In this document: positions 5,914 to 30,589 of the stretch, one piece after another
How the letters are laid out: the number at the start of each line of letters is the position of its first letter
Numbering within the stretch: position 1 is the stretch's first letter
Source: Thermoanaerobaculia bacterium
GTDB lineage: Bacteria > Acidobacteriota > Thermoanaerobaculia > Gp7-AA8
Length of the DNA stretch: 64,000 nt
NCBI GenBank assembly: GCA_017883235.1
Contig: JADGNY010000011.1
Span: forward strand, 20-64,019
Direction of reading: 5' to 3'
Made by a program: the position numbers and the translations under genes
The notes under the pieces: generated by a model
What the model was told of the DNA's origin: nothing
The model's database searches: none
The model's input: the letters and a program-made list of their open reading frames with translations, nothing else

Positions 5914-6893
5914 CGAAATACCTCTCGAATCGATTCGTCGTACGGCGCGCGCAGCACGCCGCGGTCGGTGATGATGGCGCTGATCAGGCGCGCCGGCGTG
6001 ACATCGAAGGCCGGATGGCGGACGTTGATTCCGTCGGGCGCGATCGAAACACCATTCATCGTCGTGACCTCCGCCGCGCTTCGCTCCTCGATCTCGATGC
6101 CAGCACCTGTCGGTGTGTTCACGTCGATGGTCGACAGCGGCGCGGCCACGTAGAACGGCACGCCGTGCGCGTTCGCGAGAACGGCCACGGTGTACGTGCC
6201 GATCTTGTTCGCCGTGTCGCCGTTCGCGGCGATGCGGTCGGCGCCGACGATCGCGGCGTCGAAACGTCCCTGTTGAAAGAAATGCCCGGCCATGCTGTCG
6301 GTGATCAGCGTGACGTCGATGTTTTCCTGCTTCAGCTCCCACGCCGTCAATCGCGCACCTTGCAGGTAGGGGCGCGTCTCATCGGCGAAGACGGCCACGC
6401 GCTTGCCGCCTTCGACGGCGGCGCGGATCACGCCCAGCGCCGTGCCGTAGCCTGCCGTCGCTAGGGCGCCGGCGTTGCAGTGGGTGAGGATGGTGACGGA
6501 CTCGCCGAGGAGCTCGGCGCCGTAGCGGCCGATGCGCTTGTTGGCTTCGACGTCTTCGCGAAACATCGACTCGGCCTCGGCGGTCAGATCGCGGCCGGCC
6601 TCGCGGGCCGCGAGCATCCGGTCGAGCGCCCACATCAGATTGACGGCCGTCGGACGCGACGCCCGCAACTCCGCGGCGGCGGCATCGACATCATCGTCAC
6701 GCTGGGCCGCAAGCGCGACACCGAACGCCGCCGAGACCCCGATGGCGGGCGCGCCGCGCACGATCATGTCGCGGATGGCCACGGCGACCTCGTGCGCGTC
6801 ACTGCAGGTAACCCAGTGGACGTTTCGGGGCAACAGGCGCTGATCGAGGAGGTCCAGCGCGTTGCCGCGCCAGCGAATAGGTTCAACGTGCAT
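5910..6893 (-). CDS. mtnA: S-methyl-5-thioribose-1-phosphate isomerase
   Basis: eIF-2B/MtnA family motifs: [70 protein letters not shown]. Confidence 0.9.
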
Positions 6894-7027
6894 ACGGTTC
6901 GCAGTGAAAGGCGGTCGTTATACTACGGCCAGGAGTCTGCGCGGCAGAACGATCGAGCGAAGAGGGTGGCCGAGCCTTGGGCAACCAACGCAGCCGGCCG
7001 TGCCGGCCCAGTTTTTCCGGAGGAACA

Positions 7028-8053
7028 ATGGTCAGGGTTGGAGTCAATGGTTTCGGGCGCATCGGACGCAACGTGCTCCGCGCCGCGCTCGAGCGCAATC
7101 TCGATATCGAATTCGTCGCCGTCAACGATCTCACGGACGCCGCGACGCTGGCGTATCTTCTGAAGTACGACTCGGTTCATCACACGATTCCGAACGAGGT
7201 CGGCCATACGGCCAACGGCATCACCATCGACGGGAAAGAGCTGCGCGTTTTCTCTTTCCCCGATCCCTCCGACATTCCGTGGGGCGAAGTCGGCGCCGAG
7301 ATCGTCGTCGAGTCTTCGGGCCGGTTCACGTCGAAGGCGAAGGCATCGCTCCATCTCCGGAAGTCGGTCGAGCACGTGATCATCTCCGCCCCCTCGAAGG
7401 ACGCCGACGTCACCATCTGCATCGGCGTCAACGAGCAGGATTTAGATCCCGCCGCGCACAAGATCGTGTCGAACGCCTCCTGCACCACCAACTGCCTGGC
7501 GCCGCTGGCGAAGGTGCTGCACGAAAAGTTCGGCATCGAGATGGGGATCATGACCACGATCCACTCCTACACGAACGATCAGGAGATCCTCGATCTCCCG
7601 CACAAAGACGTCCGCCGCGGCCGCGCGGCGGCGATGTCGATGATCCCGACGACGACCGGTGCGGCCAAGGCCGTCGGCCTCGTGCTGCCGGAGTTGAAGG
7701 GAAAGTTCGACGGCATCTCCGTCCGCGTTCCCACGCCGAACGTCTCGCTGGTCGATCTGACCTTCCGCACCGAAAAGGCCACGAATGCGGATGAGATCAA
7801 CGCCGTGCTGCGCGAGTCCGCGAACGGCGCGCTGAAAGGCATCCTGACTTACTCCGACGAACAGCTCGTTTCGGTCGATTTCAACCACAACCCGTATTCG
7901 GCGATCGTCGATACGACCTTCACCCGCTCGGTCGATCCGCACATGCACAAGGTGCTGTCGTGGTACGACAACGAGTGGGGCTACTCGAACCGCGTCCTCG
8001 ATCTGATCGCGCACGTGGCGCGGGTGAAGAAGGAGTCGCTGCAACACGCATGA
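7028..8053 (+). CDS. gap: Glyceraldehyde-3-phosphate dehydrogenase
   Basis: MVRVGVNGFGRIGRNV Rossmann start, active-site SNASCTTNCLAP, C-terminal WYDNEWGYSNR. Confidence 0.95.
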   Translation: MVRVGVNGFGRIGRNVLRAALERNLDIEFVAVNDLTDAATLAYLLKYDSVHHTIPNEVGHTANGITIDGKELRVFSFPDPSDIPWGEVGAEIVVESSGRFTSKAKASLHLRKSVEHVIISAPSKDADVTICIGVNEQDLDPAAHKIVSNASCTTNCLAPLAKVLHEKFGIEMGIMTTIHSYTNDQEILDLPHKDVRRGRAAAMSMIPTTTGAAKAVGLVLPELKGKFDGISVRVPTPNVSLVDLTFRTEKATNADEINAVLRESANGALKGILTYSDEQLVSVDFNHNPYSAIVDTTFTRSVDPHMHKVLSWYDNEWGYSNRVLDLIAHVARVKKESLQHA

Positions 8054-9249
8054 TCACTATTCGGACGCTCGATGACCTTTCGCTTTCGCGGGGCGCGCGC
8101 GTCTTCTATCGCGTCGACTACAACGTTCCGCTCGACGGGACGCGGATTACCGATGCCACCCGTATCGAGGAGACGTTGCCGACCCTGCGCCGGCTCCGCA
8201 ATGTCGGTGCGGCCGTCGTGATCGCCAGCCATCTCGGCAGACCGAAGGGCGAGCGGAAGCCGAAGTACTCGCTGGAGCCGATCCGAGCGAAACTGGCCGA
8301 GCTCTTAGGCGCCGAGGTGCAATGGGCGGATGACTGTGTCGGCGACGACGCCGATGCCAAGGCATCGGCTCTCGAGCCGGGCCAGATCCTCCTGCTCGAG
8401 AACCTGCGTTTCCACGCCGGTGAAGAAGCGAATGACCGTACCTTCGCGGAGCAGTTGAGCATGCTTGCGGACTACTACGTCAATGATGCCTTCGGAGCAT
8501 GTCACCGCGCACACGCCTCGATCGATGCCCTGCCGCGACTCTTCGACAAGGCGCGTATCGCGGGCGGTCTTCTGCTGGCGAAAGAAATCGAGTTCCTGCA
8601 GAAAATCACCAACGTTTCTGACCGACCCTTCGTCGCCCTCCTCGGCGGCGCCAAGATCGCCGGCAAGATCGAACCGCTCGAAGCGCTCGTCAAACTCGCG
8701 GACACGGTCCTCGTCGGTGGCGGAATGGCGAACACGTTTCTGGCCGCCCGAGGCGTAGCCATGGGCGGCTCGCTCGTCGACAACGATTCGATCGAAGTGG
8801 CGAAGCGGATCACGAACGTGATGTTGCCGGTCGATCTCATCGTCGCTGACGATCTGAAGGAGCCGAAGACCATCGAGACCGTCGACGTGTCGAGCGGTCT
8901 GACCGCCGGACAGAAGGCCTTCGACATCGGACCGAAGACGATCGCCGCGTACGACGCGGTACTGAAAGCCGCGCGCACGATTTTCTGGAACGGGCCGATG
9001 GGCGTGTTCGAGAACGAAGCCTTCGCGAAGGGAACGATGGCCATGGCGCGATCGGTGGCCGAGGCCGGAGGGACGACGGTCGTCGGCGGCGGCGAATCGG
9101 TCGAAGCCGTGAAAGCGTCCGGTTACGCCAGCCGCATCAGCCATATCTCCACCGGCGGCGGCGCATCGCTGGAGTTCATTTCGGGGGAAACGCTGCCGGG
9201 AGTGGAGGTGCTGAGGTCAGAAAGCAGAAGGCAGAAGGCAGAAGGATGA
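8050..9249 (+). CDS. pgk: Phosphoglycerate kinase (C-terminus extended 11 aa into a repeat)
   Basis: The ATG overlaps the gap stop (ATGA). Motifs RVDYNVPLDG, ASHLGRPKGE and STGGGASLEF are present. The last residues, RSESRRQKAEG, are encoded by the (CAGAAGG)n element. Confidence 0.95.
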   Translation: MITIRTLDDLSLSRGARVFYRVDYNVPLDGTRITDATRIEETLPTLRRLRNVGAAVVIASHLGRPKGERKPKYSLEPIRAKLAELLGAEVQWADDCVGDDADAKASALEPGQILLLENLRFHAGEEANDRTFAEQLSMLADYYVNDAFGACHRAHASIDALPRLFDKARIAGGLLLAKEIEFLQKITNVSDRPFVALLGGAKIAGKIEPLEALVKLADTVLVGGGMANTFLAARGVAMGGSLVDNDSIEVAKRITNVMLPVDLIVADDLKEPKTIETVDVSSGLTAGQKAFDIGPKTIAAYDAVLKAARTIFWNGPMGVFENEAFAKGTMAMARSVAEAGGTTVVGGGESVEAVKASGYASRISHISTGGGASLEFISGETLPGVEVLRSESRRQKAEG

Positions 9250-9289
9250 ATCCTTTCACCTTCTGCCTTCTGCTTTCTGCCTTCTGCCT
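9218..9289. repeat. Heptamer-built hairpin, (CAGAAGG)4 - 13-nt loop - (CCTTCTG)4
   Basis: CAGAAAGCAGAAGGCAGAAGGCAGAAGG ATGAATCCTTTCA CCTTCTGCCTTCTGCTTTCTGCCTTCTG. It covers the pgk stop codon and is a possible terminator. Confidence 0.85.
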
Positions 9290-9295
9290 TTGATC

Positions 9296-9853
9296 ATGCC
9301 TCAGGAAATCGAAGTCAAATTCGCCCTCAAAGACCGCGCCGATCTCGTGCGGAAGCTGCACGACATCGGCGGGCAGCGGCTCTATCCCGAGACCTTCGAG
9401 GACAACATCGTCCTCGACCGCCGCGGCGAGCTGCGGACCAAAGGCTCCCTGCTGCGCGTCCGCAAGTTCGGCAAGTACTCGATCGCCACCTACAAAGGGC
9501 CGATGTCGATCGAGGGAGGGGTGAAGTCGCGCGAGGAAGTGCAGACCGGCGTCGAGAGTTTCGAGCTCGCCATCCAGCTTTTCGACGCCCTCGGATACAA
9601 GCCGGTCTTCCGCTATCAGAAGTTCCGCGAGGTCTGGCGCATCAAAGAGGTCGAAGTGGTCCTCGACCGCACCCCGATCGGCGACTACTTCGAGATCGAA
9701 GGCCCGATCGACGTCATCCGCACCATCGCCGCCGAGCTGGGGATGACGATGGACCAGGCCATCCGGCAGACATACTCGGATCTGTACCGGCTGGCTCGCC
9801 GGACGCGGCCGGATCTTGGGGAGAACATGATCTTTCCGCCGGAGGCGCTTTGA
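9296..9853 (+). CDS. CYTH-domain protein (CyaB/ThTPase-like triphosphate tunnel enzyme)
   Basis: N-terminal EIEVKF (ExExK signature). The ~180-aa size and alternating-strand pattern are typical of CYTH. A TTG at 9290 is an alternative start. Confidence 0.8.
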   Translation: MPQEIEVKFALKDRADLVRKLHDIGGQRLYPETFEDNIVLDRRGELRTKGSLLRVRKFGKYSIATYKGPMSIEGGVKSREEVQTGVESFELAIQLFDALGYKPVFRYQKFREVWRIKEVEVVLDRTPIGDYFEIEGPIDVIRTIAAELGMTMDQAIRQTYSDLYRLARRTRPDLGENMIFPPEAL

Positions 9854-9936
9854 AGGCAGAAGGCAGAAGGCAGAAGGCAGAAGGATGATGCGTTTCCTTC
9901 AGCCTTCTGCCTTCTGCTTTCAGCCTTCTGCCTTCT
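9851..9936. repeat. Second (CAGAAGG)n heptamer hairpin
   Basis: TGAAGGCAGAAGGCAGAAGGCAGAAGGCAGAAGG ATGATGCGTTT CCTTCAGCCTTCTGCCTTCTGCTTTCAGCCTTCTGCCTTCT. It starts on the CYTH stop codon and ends 1 nt before the ATG at 9938. Confidence 0.85.
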
Positions 9937-10978: not shown

Positions 10979-13012
10979 ATGTCGATCCACACGCGCGTCG
11001 ACGCGCTCCTGACCCGGCTCGCCTCCCAGCAGCAATTCCCGACCCAGGGGCAGACGATCTTCGTCGACCTCGAGCGGCGGGAGGTGCGCCACGCCTGGAT
11101 TCCCCTTCGCGTGGTCAACGCTCTTCTCGGCGGGCGCGGCGTGAACATGTTTCTCCTGCACAACCTGCTCGATGAAACACTCGAGCCGATTCATCCTCAT
11201 GTCCCGCTCATCTTCGGCACCGGCATCCTGACGTCGATGGTCCCTTCGGCATCGCGCGGCAACGTCACCTCGTGGTCGCCGGAGTCGCGGGTGTTGATGG
11301 ATTCGAACGCCGGCGACTACTTCCCGTCGTTCATGAAGCTCAACGGGATCGATCACCTCGTCCTCTACGGGAAAGCTCCGGCCTGGACGCTGCTGCATTT
11401 CGAGGGGAATGAGCCTCGATTTGTCGATGCCGCGCCGTGGGTCGGGCTCGACAACCTCGATCTGCGCGCGAAGATCGCCGAAGACTTTCACGGAGTCGAA
11501 GGGAAGGACTACGGGCTGGCGGCCATCACCACGGCCGGCGAGAACCTCGTCCTCTGTTCCGGGATCATGGCCGGTCCGAAAGCGATCTACGCCCGCGGCG
11601 GCCCCGGCGCAAAGATGGGGGCGCTCAACCTCAAGGCGGTACTGATTCAGGGACGCCACGCCGACCTCACCACCGCCCGCCCCCACAAGCTCCGCAACCG
11701 GGATGTGGCGTTGAAGCTCCTCAATACCTCGGTGGTGAAGAATGCCCTGAAAAAACGCGGTACGCCGTTCCTCTACAAACCGTCGCGCATGCTCGGCGCG
11801 ATGGGGACGAAGAACAATCAGGAAACGACCTGGACCGACAAGCTCGACGCCGAGAATATCGACCCGTACCGCCCGGGCATGGAGGGCTGTTTCGCCTGCC
11901 CGGTCAACTGCCGGCCGTTGAATGACATGTCGGACGATCGGGTGTCGGGTGTCGGGGGTCGGGAGTCGGAGCTCACAGGTGCTGTACCTGGCTCTACGAC
12001 CCCCGACCCCCGACCCCCGACCCCCGTCCCCGACAAATACATCAAAGGCGACGGTCCCGAGTACGTGACCCTCGGCAAGTTCGGTCCGAACGTCGGCATC
12101 TCCGAGGTGACGCAGGTGCTGCGTCTGAACAACATCTGCAACGACCTCGGACTCGACACCGCCTCCTCCGGCTCGGCGATCTCCTGGGCCATGGAGCTTT
12201 ACCAGCGCGGCATCATCACCCGCGAGCAGACGGAGCTCGATCTGACCTGGGGCAACTACGACGCCATCGAGCAACTTCTCTTCATGACCGCGAAGCGCGA
12301 AGGCTTCGGCGACGTCATCGCCGATTCGTCGCAGGCCGTCGCGAACGGCAAGTATCCGGTCGAGTCGCTCGACTACCTGATGGCCGTGAAGGGTCTCACG
12401 CAGAGCGATCCGCACGATGCCCGCATCCTCAAAGCCTTCGCCCTCGGCCTGGCCGTCGCCACGCGTGGCATGGACCACCTTCGCAACCGTGTGACGCTGG
12501 AGATCAACGCCAAGATCAACGACTCCCCCGATTTCAAGGCCGAGCTATACGGCGGACAGGTCTCCGCGGAGCCGAACAGCTACGAGGGCAAGGAGATCGC
12601 CGTCCGCCGCTGCGAGAACATCTACGCCGTCGGCGACTCGGTCGGCATGTGCCGTTTCACCACGCAGCTCTTCAACTCCCCCTCGCTGCCGGGTTACGAG
12701 GAGTTCGCCGACCAGGTAGCCAACGTCACCGGCATCGAGCTGACGAAGCAGGCCATCGACGGCATCGGACTCAACGTGATGGGCGTCGAGCGTCTCATCA
12801 ACGCCAAACTCGGCGTCACCCGCGCCGACGACACGCTCCCCAAACGCTGGTTCGAGGAAGCGATCGGCGTCGGCCCCTACAAAGGCGAAAAAATCGACCG
12901 CGGCGAGTTCGACAAGATGCTCTCGCGCTTCTACGAGGTCTCGAATCTCACCGAAGAAGGAATGCCGAAGCCGGAATGGCGTGAGGAGCTGGAGACGGTG
13001 CTGACGGCGTAG
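10979..13012 (+). CDS. Aldehyde:ferredoxin oxidoreductase family (tungsto-/molybdopterin enzyme)
   Basis: 677 aa. AFOR N-terminal domain, Cys motif CFACPVNC, GPEYVTLGKFGPN, long alpha-helical C-terminal domain, and neighbouring MoaD-like and MoeA genes. Confidence 0.85.
   Translation: MSIHTRVDALLTRLASQQQFPTQGQTIFVDLERREVRHAWIPLRVVNALLGGRGVNMFLLHNLLDETLEPIHPHVPLIFGTGILTSMVPSASRGNVTSWSPESRVLMDSNAGDYFPSFMKLNGIDHLVLYGKAPAWTLLHFEGNEPRFVDAAPWVGLDNLDLRAKIAEDFHGVEGKDYGLAAITTAGENLVLCSGIMAGPKAIYARGGPGAKMGALNLKAVLIQGRHADLTTARPHKLRNRDVALKLLNTSVVKNALKKRGTPFLYKPSRMLGAMGTKNNQETTWTDKLDAENIDPYRPGMEGCFACPVNCRPLNDMSDDRVSGVGGRESELTGAVPGSTTPDPRPPTPVPDKYIKGDGPEYVTLGKFGPNVGISEVTQVLRLNNICNDLGLDTASSGSAISWAMELYQRGIITREQTELDLTWGNYDAIEQLLFMTAKREGFGDVIADSSQAVANGKYPVESLDYLMAVKGLTQSDPHDARILKAFALGLAVATRGMDHLRNRVTLEINAKINDSPDFKAELYGGQVSAEPNSYEGKEIAVRRCENIYAVGDSVGMCRFTTQLFNSPSLPGYEEFADQVANVTGIELTKQAIDGIGLNVMGVERLINAKLGVTRADDTLPKRWFEEAIGVGPYKGEKIDRGEFDKMLSRFYEVSNLTEEGMPKPEWREELETVLTA
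11939..12034. repeat. 96-nt heptamer hairpin (CGGGTGT/CGGGAGT arms vs CGACCCC arms) inserted in frame in the AOR gene
   Basis: CGGGTGTCGGGTGTCGGGGGTCGGGAGTCGGA - 26-nt loop - CGACCCCCGACCCCCGACCCCCGACCCCCGTCCCCGAC. It encodes RVSGVGGRESELTGAVPGSTTPDPRPPTPVPD between the Cys motif and GPEYVTL. Confidence 0.85.
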
Positions 13013-13023
13013 AATAGAAGGTC

Positions 13024-13425
13024 ATGTTCGTATTCATCAGTCACGGCGATGCCGATCGCGAATTCGCCGCGGAGATTGCCAACTCCCTCCGCGGCGCCGG
13101 TATCGATGCGTGGCTCGACGCCAGCGACGTTGAACCGGGAACGAATTGGCTCCGTTCGGGAGCGAGAGCTCTCGATCGGGCGGATACGATGATTCTCGTC
13201 CTCTCTGCCAAGACGAGCGGGTCCCCGGACTTGAAAAAAGCCTTCGAATTCGCGATGACCACGCCGCGCTTCGAGAACCGCGTCATCACGGTCGAGCGCC
13301 GGACTCCGTCGCAGACGCCGTTCCCATATCCATGGATCCTGCGAGATCTGCCATTCATCAAAGAGGCGCAGGACCCGCAGAGAACGGCGGAGAAAATTCT
13401 CAAGTTCCTGAAGACGGCCGCGTGA
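13024..13425 (+). CDS. Stand-alone TIR-domain protein 1
   Basis: 133 aa. VFISHGDADREFAAEIANSLRGAGIDAWLD..GTNW..TMILVLS matches the bacterial TIR_2 pattern. The usual SxW..E segment is degenerate (SPDLKKAFEFA). It starts 12 nt after the AOR stop. Confidence 0.75.
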   Translation: MFVFISHGDADREFAAEIANSLRGAGIDAWLDASDVEPGTNWLRSGARALDRADTMILVLSAKTSGSPDLKKAFEFAMTTPRFENRVITVERRTPSQTPFPYPWILRDLPFIKEAQDPQRTAEKILKFLKTAA

Positions 13426-13429
13426 GCTG

Positions 13430-13879
13430 ATGGGCTCTCGCAAACGAGCAGGCCGGACGCTTCCCGTCGAAGTCTTTCTCTCTCACTCCGCGAAAGACAG
13501 GCGCTTTCTGAAGCGGCTTGCAGCCGTTCTCCGTAGTCATGGACTGTCCGCCTGGTTCAGTGAGCATGGCGTCCTAGGAGCGGCACAATGGCATGACGAG
13601 ATCGGCGCTGCGCTTGCTCGATGCGACTGGATGATCGTCATCCTGTCGCCGGCGGCGATTGCCTCGCGTTGGGTGAAACGGGAAGTGACACACGCGATTG
13701 AAGAGCCTCGCTTCGACGGACGCATTATTCCTTTGCGCATCAGCGTTTGCGAGGCTAAGGATCTGAGTTGGGTGTTGCCACAGATCCAAACGATCGACTT
13801 CATCGGCCGCTTCGATGACGCCTGTCGAGAATTGTTCGCCATTTGGGGCATCCGCTATCGAAAGGAATCATCCTCATGA
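13430..13879 (+). CDS. Stand-alone TIR-domain protein 2
   Basis: 149 aa. VFLSHSAKDRRFLKRLAAVLRSHGLSAWFSE..AQWHDEI..WMIVILSPAAIASRWVKREV includes the W..E segment that holds the catalytic Glu in TIR NADases. It starts 4 nt after TIR-1. Confidence 0.8.
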   Translation: MGSRKRAGRTLPVEVFLSHSAKDRRFLKRLAAVLRSHGLSAWFSEHGVLGAAQWHDEIGAALARCDWMIVILSPAAIASRWVKREVTHAIEEPRFDGRIIPLRISVCEAKDLSWVLPQIQTIDFIGRFDDACRELFAIWGIRYRKESSS

Positions 13880-14103
13880 TCACCGTCCACCTCCCCGAGC
13901 CTCTGCGCGAAGGCCGAGATGCCATCATGACGATGGACGCAACCTCCCTCGGCGACATCATCGCCCGCCTCAATCTTGCGGAGGACCGCGACGAGTTGTT
14001 CAACTTCGCCGTCAACGGAGAGCTCGTGTTGCATGGCGAGAAAGACGTCACGCTGAAGAATGGCGACGAGGTTGAGATCGTCGTGGCCATCGCCGGCGGC
14101 TGA
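13876..14103 (+). CDS. MoaD/ThiS-family ubiquitin-like beta-grasp protein ending in GG
   Basis: 75 aa. The ATG overlaps the TIR-2 stop (ATGA). FAVNGELV..LKNGDEVEIVVAIAGG-stop is the classic MoaD/ThiS C-terminus. Confidence 0.75.
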   Translation: MITVHLPEPLREGRDAIMTMDATSLGDIIARLNLAEDRDELFNFAVNGELVLHGEKDVTLKNGDEVEIVVAIAGG

Positions 14104-14196: not shown

Positions 14197-15441
14197 ATGC
14201 CTACCTTCCAACCCTCCCGCCCCGGCGAGCGGATGATCCCTGTCGAAGAGGCTCAGGAGCGAGTGCTGGCCGAGGTGCAACTGCTCGGTACCGAGCAGGT
14301 CGTCTTCACCGACGCCCTCGGGCGCGTGCTGCGCGAGGACGTGCGTGCACGCTTCGATGTGCCGCGCGGCGACAACACGGCGATGGATGGGTATGCCGTC
14401 CGGGCGGACGACATCGCCAATGCTCCTGTGTCGTTACGTGTCGTCGAGAACCTCCCCGCGGGGACGGTGTCCAAGAAGCGGGTTGAAGCGGGGACCGCGA
14501 TCCGCATCATGACCGGCGCGCTGATGCCGGACGGTGCGGACACCGTCGCGCACGTCGAGATCACCGACGCCGGGTCGGAGATCGTGACAGTCAACGAGTC
14601 CTTAAACCGGGGAACCAACATCCGCAGGCGCGGCGAAGACATGCACGCCGGCGACGTCGTTCTTGCGGATGGGACTCCGATTCATGCTGCCGAGGTCGGC
14701 GTGCTGGCCGGTGTGCAGAAACCGGTCGTCCGCGTTGGGCGGCGGCCGAGCGTGGCCATCCTTTCCACCGGCGACGAGATCATCGACGTCGGCGACGAGA
14801 TGGCGTACGGCAAGGTCGTCAACTCGAACTCCTACTCGCTCGCGGCGCTCATCCGTGAAGCGGGGGCGGTCCCGCGGATGGTCGGCATCGTGCCCGATAC
14901 CCCCGAGGCCACCATCGCGGCGATCGAATCAGGGCTCGAGTCCGATTACGTCATCTCCTCCGGCGGTGTCTCGGTCGGTGCCTACGATTTCGTCAAAGAG
15001 GCGCTCGATACCTTGGGCGCGGAGACGAGGTTCTGGCAGGTAGCGATGAAGCCCGGCAAACCGGTGGTCCTCTCGCGGATCCGCGGCCGGCTCTACTTCG
15101 GCCTGCCCGGAAACCCCGTTTCGTGCCTGGTCTCGTTCCTCCTTTTCATCGCACCGGCGATCCGGAAGGCGATGGGACAGACGACGAATCTTCTGCCGCC
15201 GATCGTGCAGACGCGCGTTCTAGCATCGCTGAAATCGCGTGGCGACCGCCGCAACTACATGCGCGTCCGTGTCATGGCGCGGGATGGCGAGCTCGTCTCG
15301 CAGCCGATGATTTCGCAAGGCTCCGGTGTCTCGACGTCGATGGTGCAGGCCAACGGCCTCATGATCGTCGAGGCCGGTGTCACGGCGATCGAGGCGGGGT
15401 CGATGGTGCCGACGGTGCTGGTGGGTCCAGTGCAGTCGTAA
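14197..15441 (+). CDS. moeA: Molybdopterin molybdenum/tungsten transferase
   Basis: GDNTAMDGYAV, ILSTGDEI, SGGVSVGAYDFVKEAL, MKPGKP. An alternative start lies at 14233. Confidence 0.9.
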   Translation: MPTFQPSRPGERMIPVEEAQERVLAEVQLLGTEQVVFTDALGRVLREDVRARFDVPRGDNTAMDGYAVRADDIANAPVSLRVVENLPAGTVSKKRVEAGTAIRIMTGALMPDGADTVAHVEITDAGSEIVTVNESLNRGTNIRRRGEDMHAGDVVLADGTPIHAAEVGVLAGVQKPVVRVGRRPSVAILSTGDEIIDVGDEMAYGKVVNSNSYSLAALIREAGAVPRMVGIVPDTPEATIAAIESGLESDYVISSGGVSVGAYDFVKEALDTLGAETRFWQVAMKPGKPVVLSRIRGRLYFGLPGNPVSCLVSFLLFIAPAIRKAMGQTTNLLPPIVQTRVLASLKSRGDRRNYMRVRVMARDGELVSQPMISQGSGVSTSMVQANGLMIVEAGVTAIEAGSMVPTVLVGPVQS

Positions 15442-15454
15442 GCATTTCGACGAC

Positions 15455-15580
15455 GGAGCGCTGGCGTCTCGCCGGCTGGCCCGGCGTGCGTCTCGCCGCC
15501 GGGTTACCAGCGAATGTTTGGAGTCTTGCCGGGTCGGGGGCGAGACGCCCCCGAGCCAGCCGGCGAGACGCCAGCGCTCC
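15455..15580. repeat. MITE-like element with 25-bp terminal inverted repeats GGAGCGCTGGCGTCTCGCCGGCTGG
   Basis: Perfect TIRs at 15455-15479 and 15556-15580, with inner GGGGGCGAGACGCCCCC. A second copy lies at 35361-35492. Confidence 0.8.
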
Positions 15581-15665
15581 GTTCAGCAACCCCGCCTTCA
15601 ACGAACCCGGCACCTCATTCGTAACCCTCCATCTGGCGTAAATCGCGCAGCAGGGGGCTAGCGAG

Positions 15666-17293: not shown

Positions 17294-17368
17294 CGGTGAT
17301 CAGCCCAGCAGCCTAACACCGAACGGGAACAGCAATTCCAATGCGGGGTCTCGCGGGGCGGCGACTCC

Positions 17369-17613
17369 CATCCTGACGTGGAGCGAAGCGACGCTGTCAG
17401 GATCTCCGGTCAGACCGCTCGGTAGTTGCCCATTGGCAGGGCCGGCGCGGACTCACCGGAGATCCTGACGGTGTCGCTTCGCTCCACGTCAGGATGAACT
17501 CACCAGCGACGCTGTCAGGATCTCCGGTCAGACCGCTCGGTAATTGCCCATCGGCAAGGTCTGCGCGGTCGCACCGGAGATCCTGACACTGTCGCTTCGC
17601 TCCACGTCAGGAT
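17369..17613. repeat. TCCTGACGTGGAGCG-family palindromic element cluster (copy A, 2 units)
   Basis: Units of ~120 nt: CATCCTGACGTGGAGCGAAGCGACGCTGTCAGGATCTCCGGT...ACCGGAGATCCTGAC.GTGTCGCTTCGCTCCACGTCAGGATG. Confidence 0.85.
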
Positions 17614-17676
17614 GAAGCCCCGCAAGCGCGCCCCCGCAACCCCGAGACCCCGCAACCCCATATACACTTCCCACCC

Positions 17677-18630
17677 TTGAAGCACTACATCGCCCTCGCC
17701 CGTCCGTTCACCCTCCTCCCACCGCTCTTCGGCATCGTTTCGGGAGCGGTCTGCGCGTGGGGATCGGCCCACAATCCCGATCCGGCGCGGGCGCTGACGT
17801 CGTCGGTGATCTGGACGATCGTCCTCGGCTCGCTCTGCGCGTCGTTTCTCAACGCGGCGAACAACTCGCTCAATCAGATCTACGACCTCGAGATCGACCG
17901 GATCAACAAGCCGAAGCGGCCGATCGTCACCGGCGAAGTGTCGATCCGCGGCGCCTGGATCTTCACCTGGATCATGTACGTCCTCGGCCTCGTGCCGACG
18001 TGGCTGGTCGTCGTCTATCCCTACACCACGTGGCGCGCCAAGTTCTTCGCACCGCTGCCGCTGCACGAATGCATCGCCATCTACCTCATCGCCTTCATCT
18101 CGACATTCGTTTACTCGGTCCCCGCGCTCGGACGGACGAAGGCGCATCCGATCGGCGCGAACCTGACCATCGCCATCCCGCGCGGCTGTCTCCTGAAGGT
18201 GGCCGGCTGGACGATGGTGGCGAGCGCCAGGACCGCGGAGCCGTGGTTCATCGGCTCGGTCTTCATGCTCTTCCTCCTCGGCGCGGCCTCGACGAAGGAT
18301 TTCAGCGACATCGAAGGCGACCGCGCCGGCGGCTGCCGTACGCTGCCGATCACCTTCGGCGTGAAGCGCGCCGCCTGGATGATCGCGCCGTTCTTCATCT
18401 TCCCGTGGCTGCTCATGCCCCTCGGCGCCGCGACGCACATTCTCACCGGCAACGCCCGGTTCCTCACGATCCTCGGCATCGCCCTGTCGCTCTGGGGCGC
18501 CTACACCGTCTGGCTCATCGTCCGCAATCCCGACGAGCTGACCGCGACGGAGAACCATCCCTCCTGGCGGCACATGTATCTGATGATGATGGCTGCGCAG
18601 GTGGGTTTTGCGGTGGCGTATGTGGTGTGA
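17677..18630 (+). CDS. UbiA-family polyprenyltransferase
   Basis: TTG start. NNSLNQIYDLEIDRINKPKRPIVTGEVS (NxxxDxxxD plus RP..G motif). 8-9 TM helices. Confidence 0.85.
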   Translation: MKHYIALARPFTLLPPLFGIVSGAVCAWGSAHNPDPARALTSSVIWTIVLGSLCASFLNAANNSLNQIYDLEIDRINKPKRPIVTGEVSIRGAWIFTWIMYVLGLVPTWLVVVYPYTTWRAKFFAPLPLHECIAIYLIAFISTFVYSVPALGRTKAHPIGANLTIAIPRGCLLKVAGWTMVASARTAEPWFIGSVFMLFLLGAASTKDFSDIEGDRAGGCRTLPITFGVKRAAWMIAPFFIFPWLLMPLGAATHILTGNARFLTILGIALSLWGAYTVWLIVRNPDELTATENHPSWRHMYLMMMAAQVGFAVAYVV

Positions 18631-18649
18631 CCCCCAACCCCAGAACCCC

Positions 18650-18920
18650 CATCCTGACGTGGAGCGAAGCGACACTGTCAGGATCTCCGGTGCGACCCGC
18701 GCAGACCTTGCCGATGGGCAACTACCGAGCGGTCTGACCGGAGATCCTGACAGTGTCGCTGGTGAGCCCCCCATCCTGACGTGGAGCGAAGCGACACTGT
18801 CAGGATCTCCGGTGCGACCGCGCAGACCCTGCCAATGGGCAACTACCGGGCGGTCTGACCGGAGATCCTGACAGTGTCGCTACGCTCCACGTCAGGATGG
18901 AGCTTAAACACGTCAGGATG
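18650..18920. repeat. TCCTGACGTGGAGCG-family cluster (copy B)
   Basis: Same sequence family as 17369-17613. It fills the whole UbiA / GT-C intergenic space. Confidence 0.85.
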
Positions 18921-29854: not shown

Positions 29855-30589
29855 ATAGAGGTAGGGAGAACCCGTTAGGGCTCCCCCTCCCTCCGCACCG
29901 GACGTGCGGATCTCCCGCATCCGGCTCTCCAGTTGGCGGTCCTGTTCAGGATAGATGTACACGTGGGACTTGCATCGCGGTGAAAGAGGTCCGACGTGCT
30001 GGCTCATGCGAGCCGCTCTGTCACCAGAGTCGATCTACATCGGTTGCTCACCGGCCCTGCGCGTATGAACTCGAATTCGTCTGCTCATATCTGTCGCGTT
30101 CTAGCCTTTCGGCAATGGACGATCAGCGCGTTTCCGGCTTGCTCCCGATCCACCTTCCTGCCTCCCTTTGCTCCACGCCCGTTACGACGCTTCCTTGCTC
30201 CTATGGAGGCTCTGACTCCCGCCCGCCTTTCACTCGCGCGGAGGGGTATCCCCGATTCACGACACCTGAATCTTTCTGTCGTTCTGTGTCCAACCACCCG
30301 ATGTCTTCCCATGTCCGCTTTCCCTTCGCTCGTTTCTTCTCGCGTTCTGGGGTCGTCACCTTAGGACCGTTTCTCGTCTGCGCCCACAGGTTCTCTCGGC
30401 TTCGCCACTGGCTAGCAGGCTCGCCAAGACACCAGGCCGAATCGACTTCCTCTCGTACGGACCGACAGACTCGCCTTCCGTTGCTCCCCACCTCGCCTTC
30501 CGGCGACGCAGTTACCGTCGGCTTTCAACCAGTCGAGCGTTTGGTTGAGAGTGTTTTCACCTCCTCTTCAGATGTGCTCTCTGGCGCAC
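29855..30589 (-). mobile_element. ORF-less group II intron (IIC-like), 735 nt
   Basis: The minus strand starts GTGCGCCAGAGAGC. Near the 3' end is a domain V-like hairpin, GAGCCGGATGCGGGAGATCCGCACGTCCGGTGC (AGC triad, 2-nt bulge). It is followed by a domain VI-like stem with a bulged A (CCCTACCTCTAT) 7 nt from the end. The intron sits 3 nt downstream of the GC hairpin CCCCCGCCTGAAGGCGGGGG. Its boundaries are defined by comparison with the empty site at 31775-31825. No RT-like ORF is present; ORF 29845-30813 is antisense noise. Confidence 0.75.

Follow-up and report, generated by a model that had tools for sequence, protein, structure and literature searches.

A mobile two-gene TIR cassette in an aldehyde:ferredoxin oxidoreductase cofactor operon, apparently an undescribed paired-TIR system

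The window analysed here, the whole of a 64,000-nucleotide stretch from a Thermoanaerobaculia bacterium (contig JADGNY010000011.1), carries two small stand-alone TIR-domain genes, TIR1 and TIR2, between the gene for an aldehyde:ferredoxin oxidoreductase (AOR) and a gene for a MoaD/ThiS-like protein with a Gly-Gly terminus. Comparison across genomes shows that TIR1 and TIR2 are a self-contained, horizontally spreading two-gene cassette, TIR-A followed by TIR-B, which entered the AOR/MoaD-like junction without a scar, recently, in an ancestor of a Thermoanaerobaculia-like clade, and is now a presence/absence polymorphism in that clade. The MoaD-like protein and MoeA are shown to belong to the ancestral AOR tungsten-cofactor operon, with no specific link to the TIR genes. 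The explanation that we favour for the whole, and to which we give about an even chance from sequence comparison, is that of a mobile TIR-A/TIR-B cassette in the AOR operon in which TIR-B would be the NAD+-cleaving subunit and TIR-A its controlling partner.

Close homologues of TIR2 (74-95% identity) share the AOR-TIR-TIR-MoaD arrangement and lie on contigs named Thermoanaerobaculia. Numerous others are more distant (50-60%), and each of those examined has another small TIR gene just upstream; alignment identified the upstream genes as orthologues of TIR1 (TIR-A) and the downstream genes as orthologues of TIR2 (TIR-B). We scanned one genome per species with a TIR-B profile, which returned 163 species, and kept 80 loci from at least 12 phyla (Acidobacteriota, Gammaproteobacteria, Alphaproteobacteria, Planctomycetota, Verrucomicrobiota, Binatia, Armatimonadota, Poribacteria, Gemmatimonadota, Chloroflexota and others), almost all of them in metagenome-assembled genomes. 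A hidden Markov model search placed TIR-A immediately upstream of TIR-B, on the same strand, in 80/80 loci, with a median gap of about 24 nt between the TIR-A stop and the first aligned TIR-B residue. The pairwise identities of TIR-A and TIR-B correlate (r=0.75), and for 25 of 73 pairs the nearest relative belongs to a different phylum. Collectively, the census results point to the pair being a co-inherited, horizontally transferred unit. Its layout is toxin-antitoxin-like, with two small co-directional genes, a short gap, mobility and variable contexts. One natural TIR-A~TIR-B fusion protein was found (P0153, 288 residues). The top whole-protein scores of the TIR-B profile in a library of 1.84 billion proteins went to giant proteins of 1000-2300 residues with 3-7 TIR-like stretches (P0148-P0152 and many others).

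The surroundings of the pair were examined in the same 80 loci. Clustering of flanking open reading frames within 5 kb revealed no recurrent third gene beyond local synteny within families. By Pfam, the 142 nearest neighbours are mainly housekeeping genes, for example UppS, CdsA, epimerases and lumazine synthase, and AOR or ThiS homologues occur near the pair solely in the single Thermoanaerobaculia representative. In 12 of 74 loci the pair is flanked on both sides by genes that read in its own direction and lie within 150 nt, as in the uppS-pair-cdsA arrangement of Pyrinomonadaceae, so wedging into host operons is recurrent and not specific to AOR.

In the window, the operon is laid out as follows:

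10979-13012, plus strand: AOR, tungstopterin enzyme family, 677 residues (Pfam AFOR_N 1.1e-39, AFOR_C 6.8e-95); the host operon gene 5' of the insertion, outside the TIR cassette
13013-13023, plus strand: left insertion junction, a spacer AATAGAAGGTC after the new AOR stop (TAG), from a junction alignment of 22 loci
13024-13425, plus strand: TIR1, the TIR-A gene, 133 residues (Pfam TIR_2, E=1.9e-19); the upstream, faster-evolving member of the pair
13430-13879, plus strand: TIR2, the TIR-B gene, 149 residues (Pfam TIR_2, E=1.1e-25); the downstream, highly conserved member
13876-13879, plus strand: ATGA stop/start overlap of TIR-B with the MoaD-like gene, the right insertion junction
13876-14103, plus strand: AOR-linked MoaD/ThiS-like sulfur carrier, 75 residues, ending AIAGG with the Gly-Gly at nt 14095-14100 (Pfam ThiS 2.2e-10)
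14197-15441, plus strand: moeA, for MoeA, which inserts the metal into molybdopterin (Pfam MoeA_N, MoCF_biosynth, MoeA_C); host operon

The open reading frames agree with the gene order given in the sequence-only reading of this DNA (AOR, TIRs of 133 and 149 residues, an ATGA overlap, a 75-residue protein ending in Gly-Gly, then moeA), and its 4 nt between the TIR genes, the overlap itself and the 93 nt before moeA were all borne out; its 12 nt between the AOR stop and TIR1 proved to be 11 nt. The TIR folds that it had assigned were likewise upheld. Bit scores against TIR_2 (PF13676) were 70.7 for TIR1 and 91.0 for TIR2 at a gathering cut-off of 28, AlphaFold (AF2) models had predicted local distance difference test (pLDDT) values of 85 and 83, respectively, and the best Foldseek matches of both models in the PDB were all TIR domains at probability 1.00, including TIR-STING, TcpB/BtpA, PdTIR, the SPARTA TIR-APAZ and BtTir. 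For the 75-residue ubiquitin-like protein, matches to MoaD/ThiS among PDB sequences were marginal (E about 0.5), so the Pfam match carries the assignment. The four-gene order AOR-TIR-TIR-MoaD was seen again in at least nine independent contigs, and this recurrence, with the strong purifying selection on the TIR genes described below, argues against a chance pattern of open reading frames. The synteny of moeA is kept in relatives both with and without the TIR genes. Upstream of the operon, Rfam detected neither a molybdenum cofactor (Moco) riboswitch nor any other known RNA, and a promoter and terminator scan of 9.8-16.4 kb gave sites no more numerous than in shuffled sequence and no plus-strand terminator between AOR and moeA.

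We also approached the locus from the AOR side. An AOR protein scan of public metagenome contigs yielded 80 orthologous loci (65-97% identity), onto which the window proteins were mapped by tblastn and which were ordered on a neighbour-joining AOR tree. Where the contig is long enough to show it, the MoaD-like gene nearly always follows AOR, with or without TIR genes, and in most of the 80 loci it does so directly. In 19 loci across the tree, the AOR stop and the MoaD start share an ATGA (...GTGCTGACCTCATGATCACC..., the TIR-less junction). None of the deeper clades (more than 45 loci) carries the TIR genes, and in nearly all of them the MoaD-like gene lies within about 120 nt of AOR. The ancestral and commonest state of the operon is AOR followed directly by the MoaD-like gene. 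A dedicated MoaD strictly adjoining AOR, often accompanied by MoeA, has been read as a neighbourhood for tungsten-cofactor synthesis (PMC1779556, PMC6365974). The described examples (Iyer, Burroughs and Aravind 2006; aorD/aorE of Aromatoleum) have the same Gly-Gly-ended MoaD/ThiS-like protein at AOR with MoeA near, and the sole difference here is the foreign TIR cassette at the junction in the present clade.

The TIR genes are confined to an AOR crown clade (AOR at least 86% identical to that of the window), where their distribution is patchy: nine loci including the window carry both TIRs, four carry TIR1 only and 19 carry neither, with these states interleaved on the AOR tree. Three TIR-less loci (L094-L096), in which AOR is 93% and MoeA 97-98% identical to the window proteins, have a seamless AOR/MoaD junction. 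In TIR-bearing loci, AOR closes with a new TAG, and the TIR2 stop re-forms an ATGA (or GTGA, TTGA) overlap with the MoaD-like gene. Since the TIR2 stop restores the ancestral overlap, the translational coupling of TIR2 to the MoaD-like gene was inherited from the junction that the cassette invaded. The GC content at third codon positions (GC3) is 0.74 for TIR-A and 0.62 for TIR-B, compared with 0.83-0.85 for AOR, the MoaD-like/ThiS gene and MoeA, and fits a foreign origin of the TIR genes.

The junction has received other small insertions in sister lineages. In several crown-clade loci a minus-strand two-gene cassette lies there, as at L113 5984-6489 (also in L106, L114, L137, L116 and L174); it encodes a multi-pass membrane protein of 128-142 residues and a hydrophobic peptide of 40-50 residues, with no Pfam match. 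A GC-rich palindromic element found downstream of moeA in the window (15453-15582) is of a type that also occurs between AOR and the MoaD-like gene in L099 (5713-5892) and L115 (5950-6117), and a different, CTCCGCG-rich element occupies the junction in L098, L104 and L110. With the membrane-gene cassette and two kinds of GC-rich repeats, the AOR/MoaD junction is an insertion hot spot.

The sequence-only reading had offered two explanations of the locus, an unrecognised module of two TIRs with a ubiquitin-like protein or a TIR pair that simply landed in a cofactor operon. In the first, the Gly-Gly-ended beta-grasp protein would be conjugated to, or used with, both TIRs in a three-gene defence system. 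Physical adjacency and the ATGA overlap in the AOR clade speak for it, and nothing else does. The ubiquitin-like gene follows AOR with or without TIRs, the overlap copies the ancestral AOR/MoaD junction, and an AOR-linked MoaD is already known as a cofactor-biosynthesis neighbourhood. In 79 other species no ThiS/MoaD homologue was detected near the pair, and a Pfam scan of the 142 nearest neighbours found no E1, E2 or JAB family. We consider the three-gene system extremely improbable; it was ruled out by the two censuses, of TIR-B loci and of AOR loci, which turned up just what the sequence-only reading had named as a refutation: relatives whose AOR-MoaD operons have no TIR genes, and the TIR pair elsewhere with no ubiquitin-like gene beside it. 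The ancestral TIR-less junction and the lower GC3 of the TIR genes favour the second explanation. A census of gene neighbourhoods had been proposed as a check, and in it the TIRs did recur as a pair, but a MoaD-like gene or AOR beside them was restricted to the AOR clade.

Selection on the cassette was compared with that on its flanks in the nine TIR-bearing AOR loci. Pairwise ratios of nonsynonymous to synonymous divergence (dN/dS) were 0.052 for TIR-A, 0.062 for TIR-B, 0.066 for AOR, 0.11 for the MoaD-like gene and 0.13 for MoeA; on these values, both TIR genes are functional. Synonymous divergence was about 1.0-1.2 in the TIR genes and 0.6-0.8 in the flanks and, between the window and L092, 0.7-0.77 and about 0.2, respectively. 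The higher values in the TIR genes are consistent with weaker codon bias, with cassette alleles that predate the divergence of the flanks, or with both. The patchy distribution and the repeated loss of TIR-B in the crown clade could suggest that the TIR genes are neutral passengers, decaying remnants of an insertion with no function in the present genome. Against this, dN/dS is low for both genes, and their reading frames are intact in nine loci at 84-95% amino acid identity despite synonymous divergence of about 1, so that we regard a passenger status as very improbable.

The two TIRs differ in their active sites. TIR2 contains the segment SRWVKRE (nt 13664-13684), with Glu85 encoded at 13682-13684. 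In a search of the TIR-B profile against the PDB, BtTir, AbTir and PdTIR matched at E of about 3e-11, with the W and E of the W...E motif aligned, and published work on these three proteins would make Glu85 of TIR-B the catalytic residue. The counterpart in TIR1 is SPDLKKA, with Ala73 (nt 13240-13242) at the position of the catalytic Glu. The earlier observation that TIR2 keeps the catalytic segment and TIR1 is degenerate there is thus confirmed by the alignment to known TIR NADases. Across species, TIR-B has Glu in 81/81 sequences, and TIR-A has Glu in 57 of 81, Asp in 12, Asn in nine, Ala in two and Tyr in one. All 22 TIR-A clusters of the AOR clade carry the Ala, even those as distant as 58% identity, and the motif KAFEFA is invariant among them (22/22). 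Columns conserved at 95% or more across phyla number 41 of 143 in TIR-B and 16 of 138 in TIR-A. Within TIR-A, the BB-loop motif (L)PGxNW is better kept than the catalytic Glu.

The two genes also differ in their dependence on each other. We found no locus with TIR-B and without TIR-A; the reverse, TIR-A and no TIR-B, is common and was seen in at least eight loci. Six of these are AOR operons (L093, L108, L132, L116, L173 and L174): the TIR-B reading frame is precisely deleted in L093 and L132, an internal deletion in L108 has left the C-terminal codons of TIR-B, and the minus-strand membrane-gene cassette takes the place of TIR-B in L116 and L174. Outside the AOR clade, TIR-B has been cleanly deleted from L175, as comparison with the syntenic L176 and L177 shows, and L180 (3129-4031) has a DUF6615 gene after TIR-A where the syntenic L178 and L179 carry TIR-B; these last three loci all lie within a type I restriction-modification locus, beside a HigB/helix-turn-helix pair. 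The DUF6615 gene suggests that TIR-A may combine with alternative partners. In all, the orphan loci represent at least four different deletions or replacements. Look-ups anchored on TIR-A found pairs in two of four cases and those anchored on TIR-B in 80 of 80 (hypergeometric P about 0.002, in a small sample). A further 11 TIR-A clusters (58-74% identity) had no TIR-B counterpart among the database matches. A second allele class of orphan TIR-A (L116, L173, L174) gave dN/dS of 0.06-0.17, and these low values, with the 11 clusters lacking TIR-B, indicate that a TIR-A without the catalytic Glu has long been maintained alone.

NAD+ cleavage by TIR domains requires a conserved Glu and also oligomerisation, through which each active site is completed by the BB loop of a neighbouring TIR. 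The invariant active site of TIR-B, the dispensable one of TIR-A, their co-inheritance, the natural fusion and the one-way dependence make a hetero-oligomer the simplest model. In the favoured explanation, TIR-B with its invariant W...E motif would be the catalytic subunit, bound and controlled by TIR-A as a partner of the same fold. TIR-A may block the self-assembly of TIR-B into an active oligomer until a trigger removes or remodels TIR-A, and the pair would then be an NADase module of the toxin/antidote or sensor/executor kind, with no need of a separate effector. In the AOR clade, where the Glu was lost, TIR-A would be purely a controlling partner. As the cassette leaves no room for an intergenic promoter of its own, its genes are probably translated by re-initiation on the transcript of the AOR operon. 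Restraint of TIR-B by TIR-A would explain why TIR-B never occurs alone and TIR-A does.

Several observations weigh against this explanation. The catalytic Glu is retained by 70% of TIR-A proteins and would not be needed by a pure antidote, so TIR-A may be an enzyme in many lineages. A simple antidote role would not predict that orphan, Glu-less TIR-A is conserved for so long, and TIR-A carries no DNA-binding domain of the kind that type II antitoxins typically have. The absence of solitary TIR-B would also be expected if TIR-B were simply inactive without TIR-A. The pair sits mostly among housekeeping genes and not in defence islands: no defence-island enrichment was detected among the 142 neighbours, which included Mrr_cat only twice and almost no defence or mobile-element families, and the defence contexts that do occur are isolated (beside AbiE or transposases, and inside type I restriction-modification loci). 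Nor was a relative of TIR-B found by tblastn in 50,697 phage records or by a scan of IMG/VR, and 72,556 plasmids held none, only one unrelated TIR protein of 267 residues.

A second way to read the pair is as a Thoeris-like signalling system, in which one TIR senses infection and makes a signal derived from ADP-ribose and the other TIR, or an effector elsewhere in the genome, depletes NAD+. Distant TIR-A proteins match the ThsB_TIR model of Pfam, TIR-B matches the ThsB models of PADLOC weakly, and the TIR-A with a DUF6615 partner in L180 resembles ThsB with alternative effectors (bioRxiv 10.64898/2025.12.03.692087). For TIR1 and TIR2 the PADLOC matches were weak and partial, confined to the TIR domain. 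Neither TIR reached a curated NCBIfam cut-off, that of any Thoeris model included; the best was Thoeris_type3_ThcB4 with 24-30 bits for a cut-off of 220. No Thoeris effector gene accompanies the TIRs in the window operon, which holds AOR, MoaD and MoeA beside them, and no conserved non-TIR effector recurs across the 80 loci. TIR-B is a bare TIR of 140 residues with no signal-binding domain, and TIR-A is without the catalytic Glu in 24 of 81 species, the whole AOR clade included, while TIR-B is intact and conserved. Together these findings make such a signalling pair unlikely.

We give a similarly low probability to a third reading, an obligate heteromeric TIR enzyme with a physiological role outside defence, in which the BB loop of TIR-A would complete the TIR-B site and a nucleotide would be made or degraded for housekeeping regulation, conceivably with a tie to pterin or NAD metabolism. 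This would suit the better conservation of the TIR-A BB loop than of its Glu, the mostly housekeeping contexts, the tight intra-operon insertions in 12 of 74 loci and the Moco-related genes that flank the pair in three further lineages. It is at odds with the differences in presence of the pair between close relatives and with its transfer across phyla, which are unusual for a housekeeping function. Selection also maintains orphan TIR-A genes, so that TIR-A can do without TIR-B. The Moco association was noted post hoc (P of about 0.01 before correction), the XdhC gene of L073 lies outside any Moco-enzyme operon, and the association is probably due to chance. The flanking genes concerned encode XdhC in L073, L081 and L090 (about 6660-7500), two or three MoeA proteins in L075 (4198-7398) and a MoCF_biosynth+FLAD1_M protein in L039 (2986-3717). 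By eye, we also noted a NadE-like gene 1.3 kb downstream in L075 and a NadC-like gene 2.6 kb upstream in L073.

Returning to TIR-A as the controlling partner of TIR-B, a more far-reaching form of this proposal, which we advance tentatively and hold to be possible but doubtful, is that the pair is a minimal immune or addiction module. One TIR would gate the NADase of a paralogous TIR, as a prokaryotic counterpart of plant sensor/executor pairs, and the module would spread by wedging into housekeeping operons and borrowing their promoters. The Glu-less TIR-A of the Thermoanaerobaculia-like clade would have an added function of its own, since it has remained under purifying selection in AOR operons long after the loss of TIR-B.

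Other repeats and elements were noted in the window. An imperfect palindrome at 11939-12031 (CGGGTGTCGGGTGTCGGGGGTCGGG... / ...GACCCCCGACCCCCGACCCCCG) lies in the AOR reading frame and contributes about 26 extra residues (...GVGGRESELTGAVPGSTTPDPRPPTPVPD...); AOR has 677 residues in the window, L092 and L174 and 651 in L001 and L004, and the palindrome seems to be a small repeat element that was inserted in frame into the enzyme gene. Copies of a palindromic repeat of about 130 nt, similar to repetitive extragenic palindromes or miniature inverted-repeat transposable elements, with arms 94-98% complementary, are found at 17365-17614 and 18644-18905, where they bracket a UbiA-family gene (17677-18630). 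Long hairpins of heptamer repeats, (GAAGGCA)n facing (TGCCTTC)n, stand at 9210-9290 and 9852-9935, both intergenic, after pgk and after a CYTH-domain gene. On the minus strand at 29855-29929, far from the operon, Rfam identified a group II intron catalytic domain (RF00029, 46 bits for a gathering threshold of 40).

To our knowledge, bacterial TIR systems combine a TIR either with a separate effector, as in Thoeris, or with a sensor domain or partner, as in CBASS, Pycsar, SPARTA and Avs. If the favoured explanation holds, a widespread operon of two bare TIRs alone would be the simplest TIR system yet, and the pair would offer a direct handle on the TIR-TIR contacts that switch an NADase on and off, a question common to plant NLR (nucleotide-binding leucine-rich repeat) pairs and SARM1. 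The cassette itself is widespread and sharply defined, and its position outside defence islands and in uncultured phyla may explain why island-based surveys would miss it. The proposal of a module with the ubiquitin-like protein has resolved into something ordinary, an accessory cassette inside a cofactor operon that is well known, and carries a warning for annotation: tight translational coupling of neighbouring genes is no proof of a functional module. Here the coupling was inherited from the junction that the cassette entered.

Among known systems, the closest solved relatives of both TIRs, by profile and by fold, are the stand-alone TIR NADases AbTir, BtTir, PdTIR and TcpB/BtpA. TIR-B shares with them the F(L/I)SH strand, the BB loop and the W...E catalytic helix. 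Those NADases are single genes, usually with an N-terminal coiled coil or other extension that drives self-association, whereas TIR-A and TIR-B are two bare TIRs (about 135-150 residues) that are always together, with one invariant active site. In Thoeris (a ThsB TIR with ThsA or another effector; types I-XI), a small TIR is likewise encoded in a short operon, and the weak similarity to ThsB profiles is shared. The cassette differs in having no SIR2-SLOG, Macro, caspase-like or other non-TIR effector, in its lack of defence-island enrichment and in an upstream TIR that is often without the catalytic Glu. A 2025 systematic survey of TIR signalling reports 29 configurations, each with a non-TIR effector, and a TIR-only one goes unmentioned in its main text; TIR clusters were picked there by enrichment beside defence genes, a criterion that TIR-A/TIR-B would miss. 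We found no description of an operon of two TIRs only in the literature searched, whose coverage is incomplete, so that this is no proof of novelty. Among TIR NADase systems, TIR-A/TIR-B is apparently an undescribed paired-TIR system.

Two further systems resemble the pair in organisation. The plant TIR heterodimer RRS1/RPS4 (PDB 4c6t), whose chains were among the Foldseek fold matches, joins a competent TIR to a second TIR by which it is restrained and regulated, and offers a functional analogy for a putative restraint of TIR-B by TIR-A. RRS1 and RPS4 differ in being large NLRs encoded by head-to-head genes, and common descent with TIR-A/TIR-B goes no further than the TIR fold. NAD+-depleting toxin-antitoxin systems (RES-Xre, MbcT-MbcA; PMC8494770) have the same two-gene, co-directional and mobile layout, with the presumed antidote first, and share with the cassette a toxin that is never alone, first genes that are commonly orphaned and NAD+ as the predicted target. 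Their toxins have the RES or MbcT fold, and their antitoxins, most of which bind DNA, are no relatives of the toxins; in TIR-A/TIR-B, by contrast, the candidate antidote is a paralogous TIR.

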